Virus genome (UHGV): UHGV-0289470
Source of the DNA: a virus
Length of the DNA: 28,488 nt
Direction: 5' to 3' (one strand)
The notes beneath the pieces are model-generated. The model ran no database searches. It saw only the letters and a list, made by a program, of their open reading frames with translations, and had not been told where the DNA came from. This document shows, piece after piece, positions 153 to 4,959 of the stretch. Both the position numbers and the translations under genes were made by a program. Position 1 is the stretch's first letter. Each line of letters opens with the position of its first letter.

Positions 153-314
153 ATGACAAAACGTCGTAAGAAATACCAGGAAAAAGAAGAGATTCGACAC
201 CCTGATTCACCTGAGGGATTAGTGGTAGCCGCAGCAAATAACAGGGCGTTCGCAGAGCGCCTTGTTGGTGTTTACAGACTAGCCAAAGCAGGAGTGAAAC
301 ATGGGCGTCGTTAA
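153..314 (+). CDS. hypothetical 53-aa ORF (MTKRRKKYQEKEE...); possibly a recombination remnant rather than a gene
   Basis: ATG 153 preceded by AGGAG (143-147). The flanking sequence caggagtcattATGACAAA matches the lambda cII-O junction as recalled, but the reading frame diverges after three codons and stops at 312-314. Overlaps the predicted oop promoter region. Not in the ORF track (<60 aa). Confidence 0.25.
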   Translation: MTKRRKKYQEKEEIRHPDSPEGLVVAAANNRAFAERLVGVYRLAKAGVKHGRR

Positions 315-363
315 GTTAGCTGATTACAGGCATAACCCTGTACAACATCAGGAGGCATCCAGT

Positions 364-1191
364 ATGGGGTATGTCTCTATACACCGCCAGTTTATGGACA
401 GCAGGCTCTATAAGGACTCTCAGGCAGTACATCTTTGGCTTCACTTAATCCTCAAGGCTAATCACGAATCTACTGTCGTCAATACGGATATCGGGCCGAT
501 AACTGTTGATCGCGGTCAGATGATAACTGGACGCCCGTCGCTGGTCAGAGAAACATTCATCCCCGACAACAAAGTTCGGAGCTTATTACGGACTTTTGAG
601 TCGAAAGGGATGCTTAATATTTGCTCGATGGGGAAGAAATTTAGCCTGTTTACAATCTTTAAATATGACGATTTTCAGGCAAAAAATTGTCCAACGGTTG
701 TCCAACGGTTGTCCAACGCAAACACCAGTAATGGCGCGGCTCTCAGCGGAGATTGTCCAACGGTTGTCCAACGGTTGTCCATAAACAATAATATAAATAA
801 TATCTCTAATACTGACGTATTAGAGAGTACCGCAGCAGACAAAAAGTCTGACAAGAAAAAACCTTCCGTTAGCTGTCAGGATGTTGTCGATGCTTACCAC
901 GAAATCCTTCCTGAAGCGCCAAGAATCCGCGCACTGAATGACAAGCGTAAAAACCAGATCCGAACGTTCTGGCGCAAAGCCGGAGTGATAACCCGCCAGC
1001 TTGACGGGCATGGTTTCACGATGCAGGACTGGAGAAATTATTTGAGCTACGTAGGCGAAAATTGCCGATGGATGTTCGAAGAGCGCCCAAACCATCAACG
1101 CGGAACCGTCTGGCACAAAAAGGGATTTGATTTCCTGCTTAACGATAATACCTACCTGAAAGTTCGTGAGGGTGAACACGATGACCGATAA
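364..1191 (+). CDS. replication initiator (O-like replisome organizer with N-terminal winged-helix domain); the origin is embedded in the gene
   Basis: ORF track 301..1191. I prefer ATG 364 because of a strong AGGAGG at 350-355 and because the N-terminus MGYVSIHRQFMDSRLYKDSQAVHLWLHLILKANHE looks like the start of replisome-organizer N-terminal domains. ATG 301 is an alternative start. Iterons lie in the middle of the ORF, as with lambda O. Stop TAA overlaps the helicase start. Confidence 0.75.
   Translation: MGYVSIHRQFMDSRLYKDSQAVHLWLHLILKANHESTVVNTDIGPITVDRGQMITGRPSLVRETFIPDNKVRSLLRTFESKGMLNICSMGKKFSLFTIFKYDDFQAKNCPTVVQRLSNANTSNGAALSGDCPTVVQRLSINNNINNISNTDVLESTAADKKSDKKKPSVSCQDVVDAYHEILPEAPRIRALNDKRKNQIRTFWRKAGVITRQLDGHGFTMQDWRNYLSYVGENCRWMFEERPNHQRGTVWHKKGFDFLLNDNTYLKVREGEHDDR
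687..785 (+). repeat. origin iterons: two clusters of three tandem 11-bp repeats TTGTCCAACGG (687-719 and 753-785), followed by an AT-rich stretch (781-830)
   Basis: Direct read: ttgtccaacgg ttgtccaacgg ttgtccaacgc ... ttgtccaacgg ttgtccaacgg ttgtccataaa, then aaacaataatataaataatatctctaatactgac. This is ori-like architecture inside the initiator gene; the repeats encode the repeated QRLSNG/CPTVVQRLS peptide segment. Confidence 0.75.
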
Positions 1192-2617
1192 TTTTTATGC
1201 GCCGCCCCATAGCATCGAGGCAGAGCAGGCGGTGATTGGTGGATTGCTTCTGGATGATGACAGCAGTGAGCGCGTCCAGAAAGTTCTGGCGATGCTGAAG
1301 CCTGACTCATTTTACTGCCGGCCACACAAAATCCTTTTCGAAGAAATAACCAGAATGCACCGTGAGCAAAAGCCAGTAGATGGCCTGACGCTTTTCGATG
1401 AACTGGAGCGTAAATCGTTAACGGCGTCTGTTGGCGGTTTTGCTTATATCGCTGAGATCGCAAAGAACACGCCAAGCGCAGCAAACATCGTTGCCTATGC
1501 AATGCAGGTTCGTGAAACCGCAATGGAACGCTACGCCATCAACCGCATGACTGAAGCGACGGAATTGCTCTATTCCCGCAACGGAATGACTGCAACGCAG
1601 AAGTACGAAGCTATTCAGGCGATTTTCACGCAACTGACAGACCATGCAAAAACCGGATCGCGTCGCGGCCTTCGTTCATTTGGTGAGGTCATGGAAGACT
1701 GGGTTAGCGACCTTGAGAAGCGATTTGACCCATCAGGCGAACAACGGGGAATGAGCACAGGGATCCCATCGCTGGACAGGATGCTGTCACCGAAAGGTCT
1801 GGTGAAAGGCTCTCTGTTTGTCATTGGCGCTCGCCCTAAGATGGGGAAAACGACGCTATACAGCCAGATGGCAATCAATTGCGCAGTGCATGAGAAAAAG
1901 CCCGCTTTGATGTTCAGCCTTGAAATGCCAGGTGATCAGATACTGGAAAAACTGGTAGGGCAGAAGTCTGGTGTTAACCCGAATATTTTTTACCTTCCGG
2001 CGACAAATGACGCTGATGACGGCTATCAGGGTGATTACGATGGTGCCTTCAACAGGGCGATCGAAACAGCTAATCGCTTGAGTGAAATCGACATGCTTTA
2101 CATCGACGACACGCCGGGATTATCTCTGGCTCAAATCGTCAGCGAAAGCCGTCGAATCAAGCGAGAAAAAGGATGTGTTGGCATGATTCTGGTCGATTAC
2201 CTGACACTAATGACCGCTGAGAAGGCCGATCGCAACGACCTTGCTTACGGCATGATCACCAAAGGACTGAAGAACCTTGCCAAAGAGCTTGATTGCGTTG
2301 TTGTGCTTCTGACGCAGCTTAACCGCGCACTGGAAAGCCGAACCAATAAACGCCCATTACCAAGTGACTCACGAGATACAGGGCAGATTGAACAGGATTG
2401 CGATTATTGGGTTGGGATCCATCGTGAAGGCGCTTTTGATGACAGTGTTCCACCTGGTGAAACCGAACTAATCCTTCGTCTCAATCGTCATGGCAATACC
2501 GGTACGGTGTATTGCATTCAGGCAAATGGCGCTATTTATGACACAGACCAACAGTCTGCTGAAATTCGCCGCCGTGAACGCGAGGAACCGCAGTCCAAGA
2601 AGAAAGGGGGATTCTGA
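1181..2617 (+). CDS. DnaB-family replicative DNA helicase (P22 gene 12-like)
   Basis: ORF track 1166..2617; ATG 1181 overlaps the initiator stop. Walker A GARPKMGKTT, N-terminal DnaB-like domain (HSIEAEQAVIGGLLLD), length about 478 aa. Confidence 0.9.
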   Translation: MTDNFYAPPHSIEAEQAVIGGLLLDDDSSERVQKVLAMLKPDSFYCRPHKILFEEITRMHREQKPVDGLTLFDELERKSLTASVGGFAYIAEIAKNTPSAANIVAYAMQVRETAMERYAINRMTEATELLYSRNGMTATQKYEAIQAIFTQLTDHAKTGSRRGLRSFGEVMEDWVSDLEKRFDPSGEQRGMSTGIPSLDRMLSPKGLVKGSLFVIGARPKMGKTTLYSQMAINCAVHEKKPALMFSLEMPGDQILEKLVGQKSGVNPNIFYLPATNDADDGYQGDYDGAFNRAIETANRLSEIDMLYIDDTPGLSLAQIVSESRRIKREKGCVGMILVDYLTLMTAEKADRNDLAYGMITKGLKNLAKELDCVVVLLTQLNRALESRTNKRPLPSDSRDTGQIEQDCDYWVGIHREGAFDDSVPPGETELILRLNRHGNTGTVYCIQANGAIYDTDQQSAEIRRREREEPQSKKKGGF

Positions 2618-2646
2618 TGACCATCTACATCACTGAGCTAATAACA

Positions 2647-2677
2647 GGGGCTATTTACACAGTAGCCCTTTTTTATT
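2647..2677 (+). terminator. rho-independent terminator downstream of the helicase gene (tR2-like position)
   Basis: Stem GGGCTA (2648-2653) / TAGCCC (2663-2668), 9-nt loop, then TTTTTTATT (2669-2677). Confidence 0.55.
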
Positions 2678-2701
2678 GGATTGGAAGTGAGAGGTAATAG
2701 C

Positions 2702-2869
2702 GTGAGTGAACCATCTAAACATACGCAGTATTTCCCATTCTGCCAGCGTCATATTGAGCCTGAGCGAGATGATTTAGGCGATCTGTACATTACACATGAA
2801 GGCGGATTTATTTATGTGCACGACGAAGTACTACACGATGACGATTACACATTTACGCCACTTAACTAA
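2702..2869 (+). CDS. hypothetical small acidic protein (accessory slot)
   Basis: ORF track 2681..2869 (TTG start). GTG 2702 with GAGG at 2691-2694 is the more plausible start. No recognisable domain. Confidence 0.35.
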   Translation: MSEPSKHTQYFPFCQRHIEPERDDLGDLYITHEGGFIYVHDEVLHDDDYTFTPLN

Positions 2870-2893
2870 CATCCAGCACTCTGATGGAGAGGA

Positions 2894-3094
2894 ATGATGA
2901 CAACGATTGGCGTTCTTTACGACGAGTGGACGAAAGAGCGATTCAGGCGTCATTACAAGATGGCAAAGGTCATCCGCAACAAGCCCTATCGCAATGACTA
3001 CCGCAAGGTCATGGCAAAAAACATGCAGAAGAATATCGACAAGATATTCCCACGTGGAAAGGCCGTTTGGCGCTTACTTAAAAACGAGTGGTGA
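2894..3094 (+). CDS. hypothetical small basic protein (accessory slot)
   Basis: ORF track; ATG 2894 or 2897 after GGAGAGG (2886-2892). Lys/Arg-rich 66 aa, no recognisable domain. Confidence 0.45.
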   Translation: MMTTIGVLYDEWTKERFRRHYKMAKVIRNKPYRNDYRKVMAKNMQKNIDKIFPRGKAVWRLLKNEW

Positions 3095-3105
3095 TGGAGA
3101 GGAAT

Positions 3106-3459
3106 ATGGACGAATCAAGAAAGTCTTTCGAGCAATGGGCATCAAAGCAATTCAATATCTCAGTAGAGGAAATTGTTAATAAGCGAATGCTGGGTGATTA
3201 CCTGCACAACCCAGACTTACATAATGCATGGCAAGCATGGATAGATAGCAGGGCGGCAATAGAAATTGAGCTACCAAAGCCTCATGCACATCTTATATGG
3301 ATTCAGGCTGGTCATGCGCCTGACGATTATTGGGATGATGTGGCGGTGTCATATAGCGAAAAGGATAAATGCTGCGACGGTTCAGACCGCTATCCTGTGC
3401 ATGCTGGATGGGAAATTGAAGAGGTTCTTCGCGCCGCTGGAATCAAAGTGAAGGAGTAA
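3106..3459 (+). CDS. hypothetical protein, about 117 aa (accessory slot)
   Basis: ORF track 3088..3459. ATG 3106 follows GGAGAGG (3096-3102); ATG 3094 (overlapping the upstream stop) is an alternative. No recognisable domain. Confidence 0.5.
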   Translation: MDESRKSFEQWASKQFNISVEEIVNKRMLGDYLHNPDLHNAWQAWIDSRAAIEIELPKPHAHLIWIQAGHAPDDYWDDVAVSYSEKDKCCDGSDRYPVHAGWEIEEVLRAAGIKVKE

Positions 3460-3461
3460 CG

Positions 3462-3908
3462 ATGAAGCAAATATACATACTTCGCAACGAAGCAATCAGA
3501 AATAACGCCATAGACGCCATTCTCTCACTACCCATCGACGGCAAGTCACCCCACGAAGTCCACGTTAGAGAACCCAAACGCAGCAAAGCGCAGAATGACC
3601 GTATGTGGCCGATGCTGAACGATGTTTCTCGTCAGGTGCTATGGCATGGTCAACGGCTGGCACCGGAAGACTGGAAAGACCTGTTCACTGCCCTGTGGCT
3701 TAAGACCAAAAAACTGGAGCAACGAAGTGTGCCTGGTATCGACGGTGGCGTAGTCATGCTTGGCGTGCGTACCAGCAAAATGCGAAAGGCCAGCATGACT
3801 GAGCTTATCGAAATCATGTTCTGGTTCGGCTCAGAGCGCAACGTGCGGTGGAGTGATGACTCCCGGCGAGAGTATGAATGGTCACAACGAAAAGGTAGGG
3901 ATGCATGA
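3462..3908 (+). CDS. ninB: NinB/Orf-family recombination protein
   Basis: Strong AAGGAG RBS at 3451-3456. The translation shares the lambda NinB pattern as recalled (..QNDRMW..L.DVSRQV.WHG..L..E.WK..FTA..). Confidence 0.8.
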   Translation: MKQIYILRNEAIRNNAIDAILSLPIDGKSPHEVHVREPKRSKAQNDRMWPMLNDVSRQVLWHGQRLAPEDWKDLFTALWLKTKKLEQRSVPGIDGGVVMLGVRTSKMRKASMTELIEIMFWFGSERNVRWSDDSRREYEWSQRKGRDA

Positions 3909-4432
3909 CTATCAAATCAAATACGCCAGCGTCAGATAGGTATCGGCTTATTGAGGATTATCTGTATTTAGACGGAGATACAGTCAGATACAAAAAGGAC
4001 TCGCTAAAACACCCCAACCACAGCCACCGGGCAGGAGATGAAATTAAAACATCGATAAATGGATCTGGGTATAGACAGGTGTGTTTTGCAGGCATTCAGA
4101 TGTTTGTTCACGTAGTTGTTTTTGCGCTGCACAACAAAAGAATGCCATTGAAAAATATTGACCATATTAACGGAAACAGGCTGGACAATTCCCCAAAAAA
4201 TCTTAGGGAGGCAGGCCGGATAGCAAACAGCCGAAATCAGAAAACTAAGTGCAATAGCCGTTCTGGAATAAAAAATGTTTTATGGAACAAGCAAAAAAAT
4301 AAATGGGCCGTTCAAGTGCGCACAGATTTTGGCCGGTTGTATTTTGGGCTCTATGAAGATCTTGAACTTGCTTGTTTGGTTGCCAGTGAGGCTATCAACA
4401 AATATCACGGACAATATGCGAAGGTTGTATGA
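3905..4432 (+). CDS. HNH homing-type endonuclease with C-terminal AP2-like DNA-binding domain
   Basis: HNH motif ..NIDHINGNRLDNSPKNLR..; C-terminal segment KWAVQVRTDFGRLYFGLYEDLELACLVASEAINKYHG is typical of AP2 domains. ATG overlaps the ninB stop (ATGA). Confidence 0.7.
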   Translation: MTIKSNTPASDRYRLIEDYLYLDGDTVRYKKDSLKHPNHSHRAGDEIKTSINGSGYRQVCFAGIQMFVHVVVFALHNKRMPLKNIDHINGNRLDNSPKNLREAGRIANSRNQKTKCNSRSGIKNVLWNKQKNKWAVQVRTDFGRLYFGLYEDLELACLVASEAINKYHGQYAKVV

Positions 4433-4959
4433 TTAAGCATAAATCAGAAACACCAAAAGAAGTTAGAGACTGCTGGCAAACGCCGCTTTGGCTTTTTGAT
4501 GCACTGGATATTGAGTTTGGATTCTGGCTGGATTCGGCAGCGAGCGACAAAAATGCTCTGTGCGCTCACTGGTTAACTGAGGCCGACGACGCGCTAAATT
4601 CTGAGTGGATAAGCCACGGTGCAATCTGGAATAACCCACCGTACAGCAATATCAGGCCGTGGGTGGGAAAAGCCGCTGAGCAGTGCATACAACAGCGACA
4701 GACGATAGTGATGCTTGTGCCAGAGGATATGTCTGTCGGATGGTTCAGCAAGGCTCTGGAGAGTATTGACGAAGTTCGCATCATTACTGATGGACGGATT
4801 AATTTTATCGAACCATCGACAGGGCTGGAGAAGAAGGGAAACAGCAAAGGCTCAATGCTACTGATTTGGCGACCGTTCATCAGTCCTCGACGGATGTTTA
4901 CTACCGTATCCAAAGCGGCATTGATGGCGATCGGGCAGGGCGTCAGGAGGGCGGCATGA
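4429..4959 (+). CDS. phage DNA N6-adenine methyltransferase (Dam-like, NPPY motif)
   Basis: Motifs [15 protein letters not shown]...DSAAS...NPPYS are typical of the phage N-6-adenine-methyltransferase family. Start overlaps the HNH stop. Confidence 0.7.

Follow-up and report, generated by a model that had tools for sequence, protein, structure and literature searches.

A mosaic three-gene accessory segment between the tR2-type terminator and ninB of a lambdoid prophage

What is encoded by the small genes that separate the replicative helicase gene from ninB is the question raised by the virus genome UHGV-0289470. The stretch analysed here (28,488 nucleotides, hereafter the window) has at its start the early-right operon of a lambdoid prophage, and in its virion genes it shares 97% identity with SfII, SfI, SfIV and SfV, which are myovirus-tailed Shigella/E. 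coli phages. Within this operon, three small open reading frames (ORF1, ORF2 and ORF3) fill the interval that ends at ninB (Table 1). An earlier note on this DNA had placed them where lambda carries ren, and had proposed them as early-expressed candidates for anti-defence or host-takeover functions. We find that the three-gene segment from tR2 to ninB is a typical mosaic accessory region of the nin segment, ordinary for lambdoid phages. With confidence slightly better than even, we read the interval as an array of non-essential accessory cassettes in the pR operon of an SfV/SfII-like lambdoid prophage, the products of which would be directed at the host.

Variable gene content between tR2 and ninB

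Eighty viral contigs carrying a NinB at least 95% identical to that of the window were fetched and combined with other loci, and the genes lying past the last large replication gene and ahead of ninB were catalogued in 73 NinB-anchored loci. These loci displayed 36 different gene orders, with intervals ranging from 172 to 2379 bp, bearing out the expectation of the earlier note that the content of the slot varies among related prophages. The ORF3 superfamily occurred 60 times, the DUF7301 family (PF23975) 37 times, a membrane protein of 52–64 amino acids (aa) 22 times and Ren, always ahead of tR2, 21 times, while ORF1 was present in three loci and ORF2 in two. A Lar_restr_allev protein (PF14354, expectation value (E) 1.8e-10) was encoded between tR2 and ninB in 35 of the 73 loci, indicating that anti-restriction genes do reside in this interval. 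The same interval is empty in lambda and in locus L050, which suggests that the cassette genes are non-essential. No place covering at least 80% of window positions 2600–3500 was found in 50,697 phage records or in 5,426 complete E. coli genomes.

The three genes each travel independently. The Cronobacter homolog of ORF1 lies in the same interval with a NinX-like gene on one side and a gene for 47 aa on the other, the Enterobacter homolog of ORF2 is preceded there by a different 58-aa gene, and the gene upstream of the E. coli copies of ORF2 is either ORF1 or an unrelated 62-aa acidic protein. An obligate, toxin–antitoxin-like pairing of the acidic ORF1 with the basic ORF2 was considered and rejected, as ORF2 can follow another gene and ORF1 is found in loci that lack ORF2. 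The proteins most often encoded alongside the exact ORF3 protein (L002, L004, L006, L008 and L009) are a 67-aa Cys-rich protein (CKCGKSP...GCQIYCANH), a 60-aa protein and DUF7301; from these loci it appears that the first cassette past tR2 is often a small Cys/His-rich protein, as is ORF1. In an Enterobacter cloacae prophage (L010, 3811–6188), an IS66-family element with TnpA, TnpB and DDE transposase genes lies directly after the ORF2 homolog, within the accessory interval.

Sequence conservation over 97 loci was confined mainly to short islands at the ninA start, ahead of ORF2, at the start of the ORF3-type gene and at ninB (Table 1). These junctions consist of a stop codon with a Shine-Dalgarno motif, or of the first or last codons of a gene, and they are common to other lambdoid phages even where different genes lie between them. 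One case is the 14-mer TGATGGAGAGGAAT, an exact repeat that brackets ORF2 in the window and in L001, and brackets the dissimilar orf69 (DUF7301) in phage L. This arrangement fits cassette exchange by recombination at short common junctions, in line with the relaxed homologous recombination described between lambdoid phages (PMC3945230); the junctions may be the actual crossover points, at which homologous recombination would swap, add or delete cassettes. A second type of ninB-proximal junction was observed in L014, L019, L029 and others, where otherwise unrelated genes, including Lar, ORF3-superfamily variants and phage L orf98, share the ending ...ASQRSNQK and reach ~44 nt into ninB.

Table 1 Features of the accessory interval and its surroundings in the window
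Feature	Position	Strand	Description
O-like replication protein	301–1191	+	
DnaB-type replicative helicase	1166–2617	+	Left border of the slot; Pfam DnaB_C E 9e-60, DnaB E 4e-31
ninA start island	2610–2649		Conserved in 85 loci
ninA mini-ORF	2617–2697	+	26 aa, MTIYITELITGAIYTVALFYWIGSER; ATG overlaps the helicase TGA stop (TGATG); terminator hairpin inside
tR2-type intrinsic terminator	2646–2678	+	From terminator scan; 10-bp stem (2646–2670), 5-nt loop, then T run
Three-ORF interval	2678–3459	+	
ORF1	2702 (GTG)–2869	+	55 aa; isoelectric point (pI) 4.5; 12 acidic and 3 basic residues
Island at junction ahead of ORF2	2870–2909		Conserved in 9 loci
Junction 14-mer, copy 1	2882–2895	+	TGATGGAGAGGAAT, exact repeat; includes the ORF2 Shine-Dalgarno motif
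ORF2	2897 (ATG)–3094	+	65 aa (66 aa from ATG 2894); pI 10.5; 18 basic and 6 acidic residues
Junction 14-mer, copy 2	3092–3105	+	TGATGGAGAGGAAT, exact repeat; includes the ORF2 stop (TGA) and the ORF3 Shine-Dalgarno motif
Island at start of ORF3-type gene	3100–3129		Conserved in 39 loci
ORF3	3106 (ATG)–3459	+	117 aa; pI 5.0; Pfam PF26207 Phage_phiTE_015
ninB island	3460 onward		Conserved in up to 84 loci
ninB/orf recombination mediator	3462–3908	+	Right border of the slot; Pfam NinB E 4.3e-48; PHROG 72
HNH endonuclease	3905–4432	+	HNH_3 E 5e-10
Dam methylase	4429–4959	+	

The tR2-like terminator that the earlier note saw directly ahead of the ORFs is upheld by its stem and T run (RNA fold energy −17.4 kcal/mol) and by a 5′ flank homologous to the lambda ninA/tR2 region. 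It is located inside a mini-ORF, ninA, which the earlier reading had overlooked and whose ATG lies 29 nt ahead of the stem. The 5′ part of ninA is common to 85 of the 97 fetched loci and to lambda, and its first 33 bases match the lambda sequence just downstream of ren at 32 positions. At the same distance lambda carries a different hairpin (GGCCTGCtggtaatcGCAGGCC, then TTTTTATTT), which we take to be tR2; lambda and most loci have a different stem with the same architecture in the same place as the window. In the annotation of phage L the equivalent ORF is named ninA, with terminators inside it, and NinA has been reported to start 30 bp upstream of tR2 and to stop 16 bp downstream of it (PMC4824070). 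The window element likewise combines a G+C-rich hairpin and a U run ~30 nt after the ninA start with a location downstream of the replication/ren genes. The fetched loci contain 87 occurrences of the element in three hairpin classes. In all three classes (the window; L038, L070, L082 and L096) the ninA peptide is hydrophobic and transmembrane-like, including one class with a weak hairpin (−6 to −8 kcal/mol, peptide MTIYITELIAGLSLLMVLTVYIIKYILYANKKTN), from which it seems that the peptide itself, beyond the terminator, may be under selection. Two loci, L016 and L027, carry a tandem duplication of ~21 nt of the tR2 hairpin (peptide ...GLLVIAGLLVIAGLF...), giving a longer predicted structure of −21.3 kcal/mol.

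The position of this element also settles the relation to ren. Wherever a locus carries Ren, the gene lies between P and ninA/tR2 and the variable genes follow, and lambda likewise has P, Ren and ninA/tR2 in this order. Because ren and the variable genes flank ninA/tR2 on opposite sides, there are two variable sub-slots, one from the replication gene to ninA/tR2 and the other from tR2 to ninB. Across loci the upstream sub-slot is either empty, as in the window, or contains Ren, an 89-aa protein or a 57-aa protein; ORF1–3 fill the downstream sub-slot, the nin segment proper, and clustering gave them no similarity to Ren. The proposed ren-equivalent position was therefore not borne out. The early timing given in the earlier note also needs refining, since a placement past tR2 would make ORF1–3 delayed-early and dependent on readthrough, and not immediate-early. 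A search for promoter-like sites in 2300–3800 found none, compared with 2.2 expected from shuffles, and with the position downstream of the terminator this suggests that expression of ORF1–3 should depend on tR2 readthrough. In the proposed mechanism the three proteins would be made only in lytic growth, when N-type antitermination carries transcription past tR2, and would not be expressed from the repressed prophage.

Coding status and properties of the three ORFs

The three small ORFs were recovered as first described, all on the plus strand, and the description of one as acidic and another as basic agrees with their isoelectric points (Table 1). RefSeq carries the same frames and lengths for all three in other E. 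coli prophages, as hypothetical proteins. Shine-Dalgarno motifs precede each start: GAGG lies 7 nt ahead of the ORF1 GTG, and GGAGAGG lies 4 and 3 nt ahead of the ORF2 and ORF3 ATGs, respectively. The encoded proteins are all hydrophilic (grand average of hydropathy −0.65 to −1.07). The window copies of ORF1 and ORF2 were compared with those of an 88%-identical E. coli prophage (L093) by the ratio of non-synonymous to synonymous substitution rates (dN/dS). ORF1 showed 16.7 synonymous and 14.3 non-synonymous differences (dS 0.84, dN/dS 0.14), and ORF2 showed 14.0 and 4.0 (dS 0.51, dN/dS 0.05), indicating that both are under purifying selection. The exact window proteins occur on at least 100 (ORF1), 106 (ORF2) and 374 (ORF3) contigs of E. 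coli, Salmonella and Enterobacter, all of them named hypothetical. Taken with the RefSeq coding sequences and the homologs of ORF3, these ratios argue, at the level of sequence evolution, against the possibility that the ORFs are not translated, and they mark ORF1, ORF2 and ORF3 as small-protein genes that are translated and independent of one another.

ORF3 consists of an N-terminal three-helix module (residues 1–50) and a C-terminal module (residues 56–117), joined at a conserved SRAAIE hinge. The N-module is modelled with high confidence (predicted local distance difference test (pLDDT) 88–96), and its sequence is hypervariable except for an F..W and W.AW framework. The C-module (pLDDT 59–80) holds all 27 invariant columns, at residues 57–112, found in 29 sequences that are 50–98% identical; the core PHAHLIW.QAG..PDDYWDD...CCDGS.RY is present, with H62, Q67, PDDYW, CCDGS and RY among the invariants. 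In the superfamily a MDESRK start, the hinge and an IRAAGIKVKE end delimit the two modules, which reassort: one identical N-module occurs with two C-modules, and one C-module occurs with six N-modules. With a threshold of E 1e-3, 1070 homologs of ORF3 were recovered. The protein matches PHROG 343 (E 2e-21), and a precomputed Pfam match on the identical 117-aa protein in six loci and on close homologs places it in PF26207; both families are of unknown function. The earlier statement that no recognisable domains are present therefore stands for ORF1 and ORF2 and fails for ORF3. Relatives at 30–37% identity include Sf6 gp48, ST64T orf86 and unnamed genes of HK022, mEp213, mEp235 and Stx phages, none of them characterised, and structure searches were uninformative, with BFVD returning only the ORF3 family itself.

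ORF1 matches PHROG 36993 (E 4.6e-37), a family whose function is not known, and its homologs form five database clusters. Among six family sequences the invariant residues include C14, H17, H40 and H45, through which ORF1 probably forms a small metal-binding knuckle; the AlphaFold2 model has a β-hairpin at the Cys knuckle (pLDDT 72). The window protein has Phe at position 11, where five of the six family members have Cys. The Phe form is found on at least 100 contigs and is as common as the Cys form, so that Cys11 is probably not essential. A decaying gene, suggested by the Cys11-to-Phe change and the GTG start, was ruled out by this frequency of the Phe form and by the GTG start common to all E. 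coli copies. Membership of the Lar family (PF14354) was also rejected, because neither the window protein nor CxxC-intact homologs match the profile and the second Cys pair is missing.

ORF2 has few relatives and occurs in prophages of E. coli, Salmonella and Enterobacter. A search of 1.84 billion representative proteins returned its own cluster, two frameshift variants and one marginal match (E 8.8e-4, 26% identity), and ORF2 is, on these comparisons, an orphan protein. It lies in the same place as DUF7301, the family of ST64T orf69, between the same two 14-mers, and resembles it in length and charge. The similarity is weak: BLASTP against phage L orf69 gave E 0.002 at 25% identity, PHROG 4459 matched at E 0.0016, hmmscan found no match to the Pfam family, hhalign gave a probability of 8.7% at E 0.0038, and the exhaustive search of the same representative proteins contained no bridging sequences; homology to DUF7301 is no more than possible. 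At this position ORF2 would probably act as a nucleic-acid-binding protein. Two database entries, P0125 and P0126, fuse parts of ORF2 with out-of-frame translations of the same region, and a Klebsiella protein, P0107, combines the phiTE_015 C-module with part of an MT-A70 methyltransferase; all three fusions are probably frameshifts or recombination scars.

Possible functions of the encoded proteins

Searches for function returned little for any of the three proteins. Pfam and NCBIfam scans gave nothing significant apart from the precomputed PF26207 match of ORF3, PHROG searches returned only families of unknown function, and PADLOC defence-protein models gave no match at E up to 1. The prospect that the ORFs would prove to be ordinary replication or recombination proteins was not supported, as no such homology appeared in Pfam, PHROG, NCBIfam or Protein Data Bank searches. 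A literature search on PF26207, DUF7301, phrog_343 and nin-region anti-defence yielded nothing relevant, and the sequences of ORF1–3 are not in the supplements of an accessory-gene screen (PMC12373910).

The reading that we narrowly favour is that of host-directed accessory cassettes, to which the occurrence of Lar in the interval, the lack of replication or recombination matches and the hydrophilic character of the proteins all point. The three products would then be soluble cytoplasmic factors acting in lytic growth on the host (restriction, other defences or physiology) and not on phage replication or recombination, with ORF1 a small acidic and probably metal-binding protein, ORF2 a basic and probably nucleic-acid-binding protein, and ORF3 a protein of two independently reassorting modules. 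The only positive clue to function is that Lar genes can take up this interval in other loci, and that the adjacent sub-slot can hold Ren. Several points weigh against this reading. Protein Data Bank sequence and profile searches gave no match for any of the three proteins, and none resembles the known anti-defence proteins compared (Ocr, ArdA, Ral, Gam, Acr, Tad, Gad and others) in sequence or predicted fold. The metal-binding idea for ORF1 draws on four invariant residues in only six sequences, and hhalign of ORF1 against Lar gave a probability of 23.5% over 10 columns, with only the CPFC knuckle in common. Broadly acting anti-restriction genes are often found on plasmids, and ORF1–3 are essentially absent from plasmids, with no association with plasmid leading regions. 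The dependence on antitermination is deduced from position only, as the nutR/N region lies upstream, outside the window. Finally, the presence of the ORF3 superfamily in most loci, usually beside ninB, would also fit a conserved nin-region function.

A narrower proposal assigns a dedicated anti-defence function, such as that of an anti-restriction factor, to one or more of the three proteins. An anti-defence role is plausible by analogy, given the Lar-family genes in the interval and the role of the neighbouring lambda Ren in countering Rex exclusion, and the fast turnover of cassettes, the small size and strong charge of the proteins, the Lar-like CPFC knuckle of ORF1 and the hypervariable N-module of ORF3 on a conserved C-module are all in keeping with it. 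The lack of likeness to any known anti-defence protein, the failure of ORF1 in tests of Lar membership, the near absence from plasmids and the strong purifying, rather than diversifying, selection on ORF1 and ORF2 speak against it, and positional association is a weak argument in a region that also holds membrane proteins and many unknown genes. We therefore regard a dedicated anti-defence function as possible and distinctly less probable than even. More speculative still is the idea that the ORF3 superfamily constitutes a new class of bipartite early phage proteins, in which exchangeable, hypervariable N-terminal helical modules and alternative C-modules would be shuffled at the hinge by an arms race with host immunity, and that ORF1, with its Cys/His metal knuckle, and the basic orphan ORF2 are further unrecognised inhibitors in the cassette array of Lar; we hold it only tentatively.

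It is unlikely, in our estimate, that the ORF3 superfamily serves as a partner of NinB or as part of the nin recombination functions, with ORF1 and ORF2 as unrelated passengers. The exact ORF3 protein ends 2 nt upstream of ninB at five of the six places examined, as it does in the window (IRAAGIKVKE-TAA, then the gap), the last codons of ORF3, which are conserved, include the ninB Shine-Dalgarno motif, and the superfamily is frequent in the 73 loci. However, NinB occurs without the superfamily in lambda and in L016, L018, L050, L065, L073 and L077, which makes an obligate partnership unlikely. In addition, Lar or other genes often intervene between the ORF3-type gene and ninB, and the C-module is also found in Klebsiella Ead/Ea22-like proteins and in Pectobacterium phages, with no adjoining ninB in the stretches examined.

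The Klebsiella proteins raise another alternative, in which ORF3 would work through a host partner to modulate the lysis–lysogeny decision, in the manner of lambda Ea22. Many Klebsiella proteins with an Ead/Ea22 N-domain and a coiled coil have a C-terminus 74–86% identical to the C-module of ORF3, and Ea22 is itself modular, with an N-domain, a coiled coil and a variable C-terminal domain, and favours lysogeny (PMC10834534). ORF3, in contrast, lacks both the coiled coil and the Ead/Ea22 domain (PF13935): hmmscan gave no match at E up to 0.1, and none for a 98% homolog at E up to 1, whereas the Klebsiella fusion P0034 matched at E 9e-8. A nuclear magnetic resonance structure of the C-terminal domain of lambda Ea22 has been reported (PMC10834534), and ORF3 matched no chain in the Protein Data Bank, which is expected to include that domain. 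A location downstream of tR2 would mean late expression for a decision function, and the Klebsiella fusions are encoded downstream of replication genes, as is ORF3, with none seen in an exo–xis-type region, the home of lambda ea22. An Ea22-like role thus seems improbable. Least credible, and already disfavoured, is the view that the ORFs are non-functional or untranslated filler and the interval only a spacer or RNA: the lack of ORF2 relatives beyond its own cluster and the Phe of window ORF1 where most relatives have Cys would suit it, but the low dN/dS ratios at substantial dS, the intact Shine-Dalgarno motifs, the frequency of the Phe form and an Rfam scan with no match in the window stand against it.

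Related systems, flanking genes and significance

The host-directed cassettes that we favour have their closest counterparts in the lambda nin region (tR2 to Q) and in the ninA-orf90-orf69-orf86-orf98-ninB segment of P22, ST64T and phage L, which has the same position and the same ninA/tR2 element. Phage L shares the junction sequences of the window, including the 14-mer that flanks its orf69. The window differs in having ORF1 and ORF2 in place of orf90 and orf69, and its ORF3 (~32% identity to ST64T orf86, 36% to Sf6 gp48) carries the phiTE_015 C-module that orf86 lacks; these phage genes are likewise uncharacterised. Lar/Ral proteins (PF14354) share with ORF1 the interval, a similar size and the CPFC knuckle, but ORF1 is acidic and has two His in place of the second Cys pair of Lar. 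Lambda Ren is likewise a small accessory protein whose gene follows the replication genes at a variable position, differing from ORF1–3 in lying upstream of ninA/tR2 and in sequence. The Ead/Ea22-like proteins resemble ORF3 in their modular build, an N-domain with an interchangeable C-terminal domain, and differ in the features considered above, to which is added that the C-module has no sequence match among solved structures.

Beyond ninB, an HNH endonuclease gene is placed between ninB and the Dam methylase gene with a 4-nt overlap on each side; in L001 and L095 the Dam gene directly abuts ninB, with no HNH gene between them, and the HNH gene looks like a free-standing homing-endonuclease insertion. 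Upstream of the helicase gene, the O-like replication protein contains a peptide repeat (CPTVVQRLSN/CPTVVQRLSI) at about 700–800, which implies direct DNA repeats in the gene, probably origin iterons as in lambda O.

At present, the analysis documents an ordinary mosaic accessory region with three uncharacterised genes. Its conserved junctions provide a clean example of module exchange through short common linkers in lambdoid phages, fitting PMC3945230. ORF3 alone is carried by at least 374 contigs, and most of the loci surveyed contain its superfamily. Were one of the three proteins to prove an inhibitor of a host defence, the tR2–ninB interval would become a mapped place, bounded by known junctions, in which to look for such genes in thousands of enterobacterial prophages.

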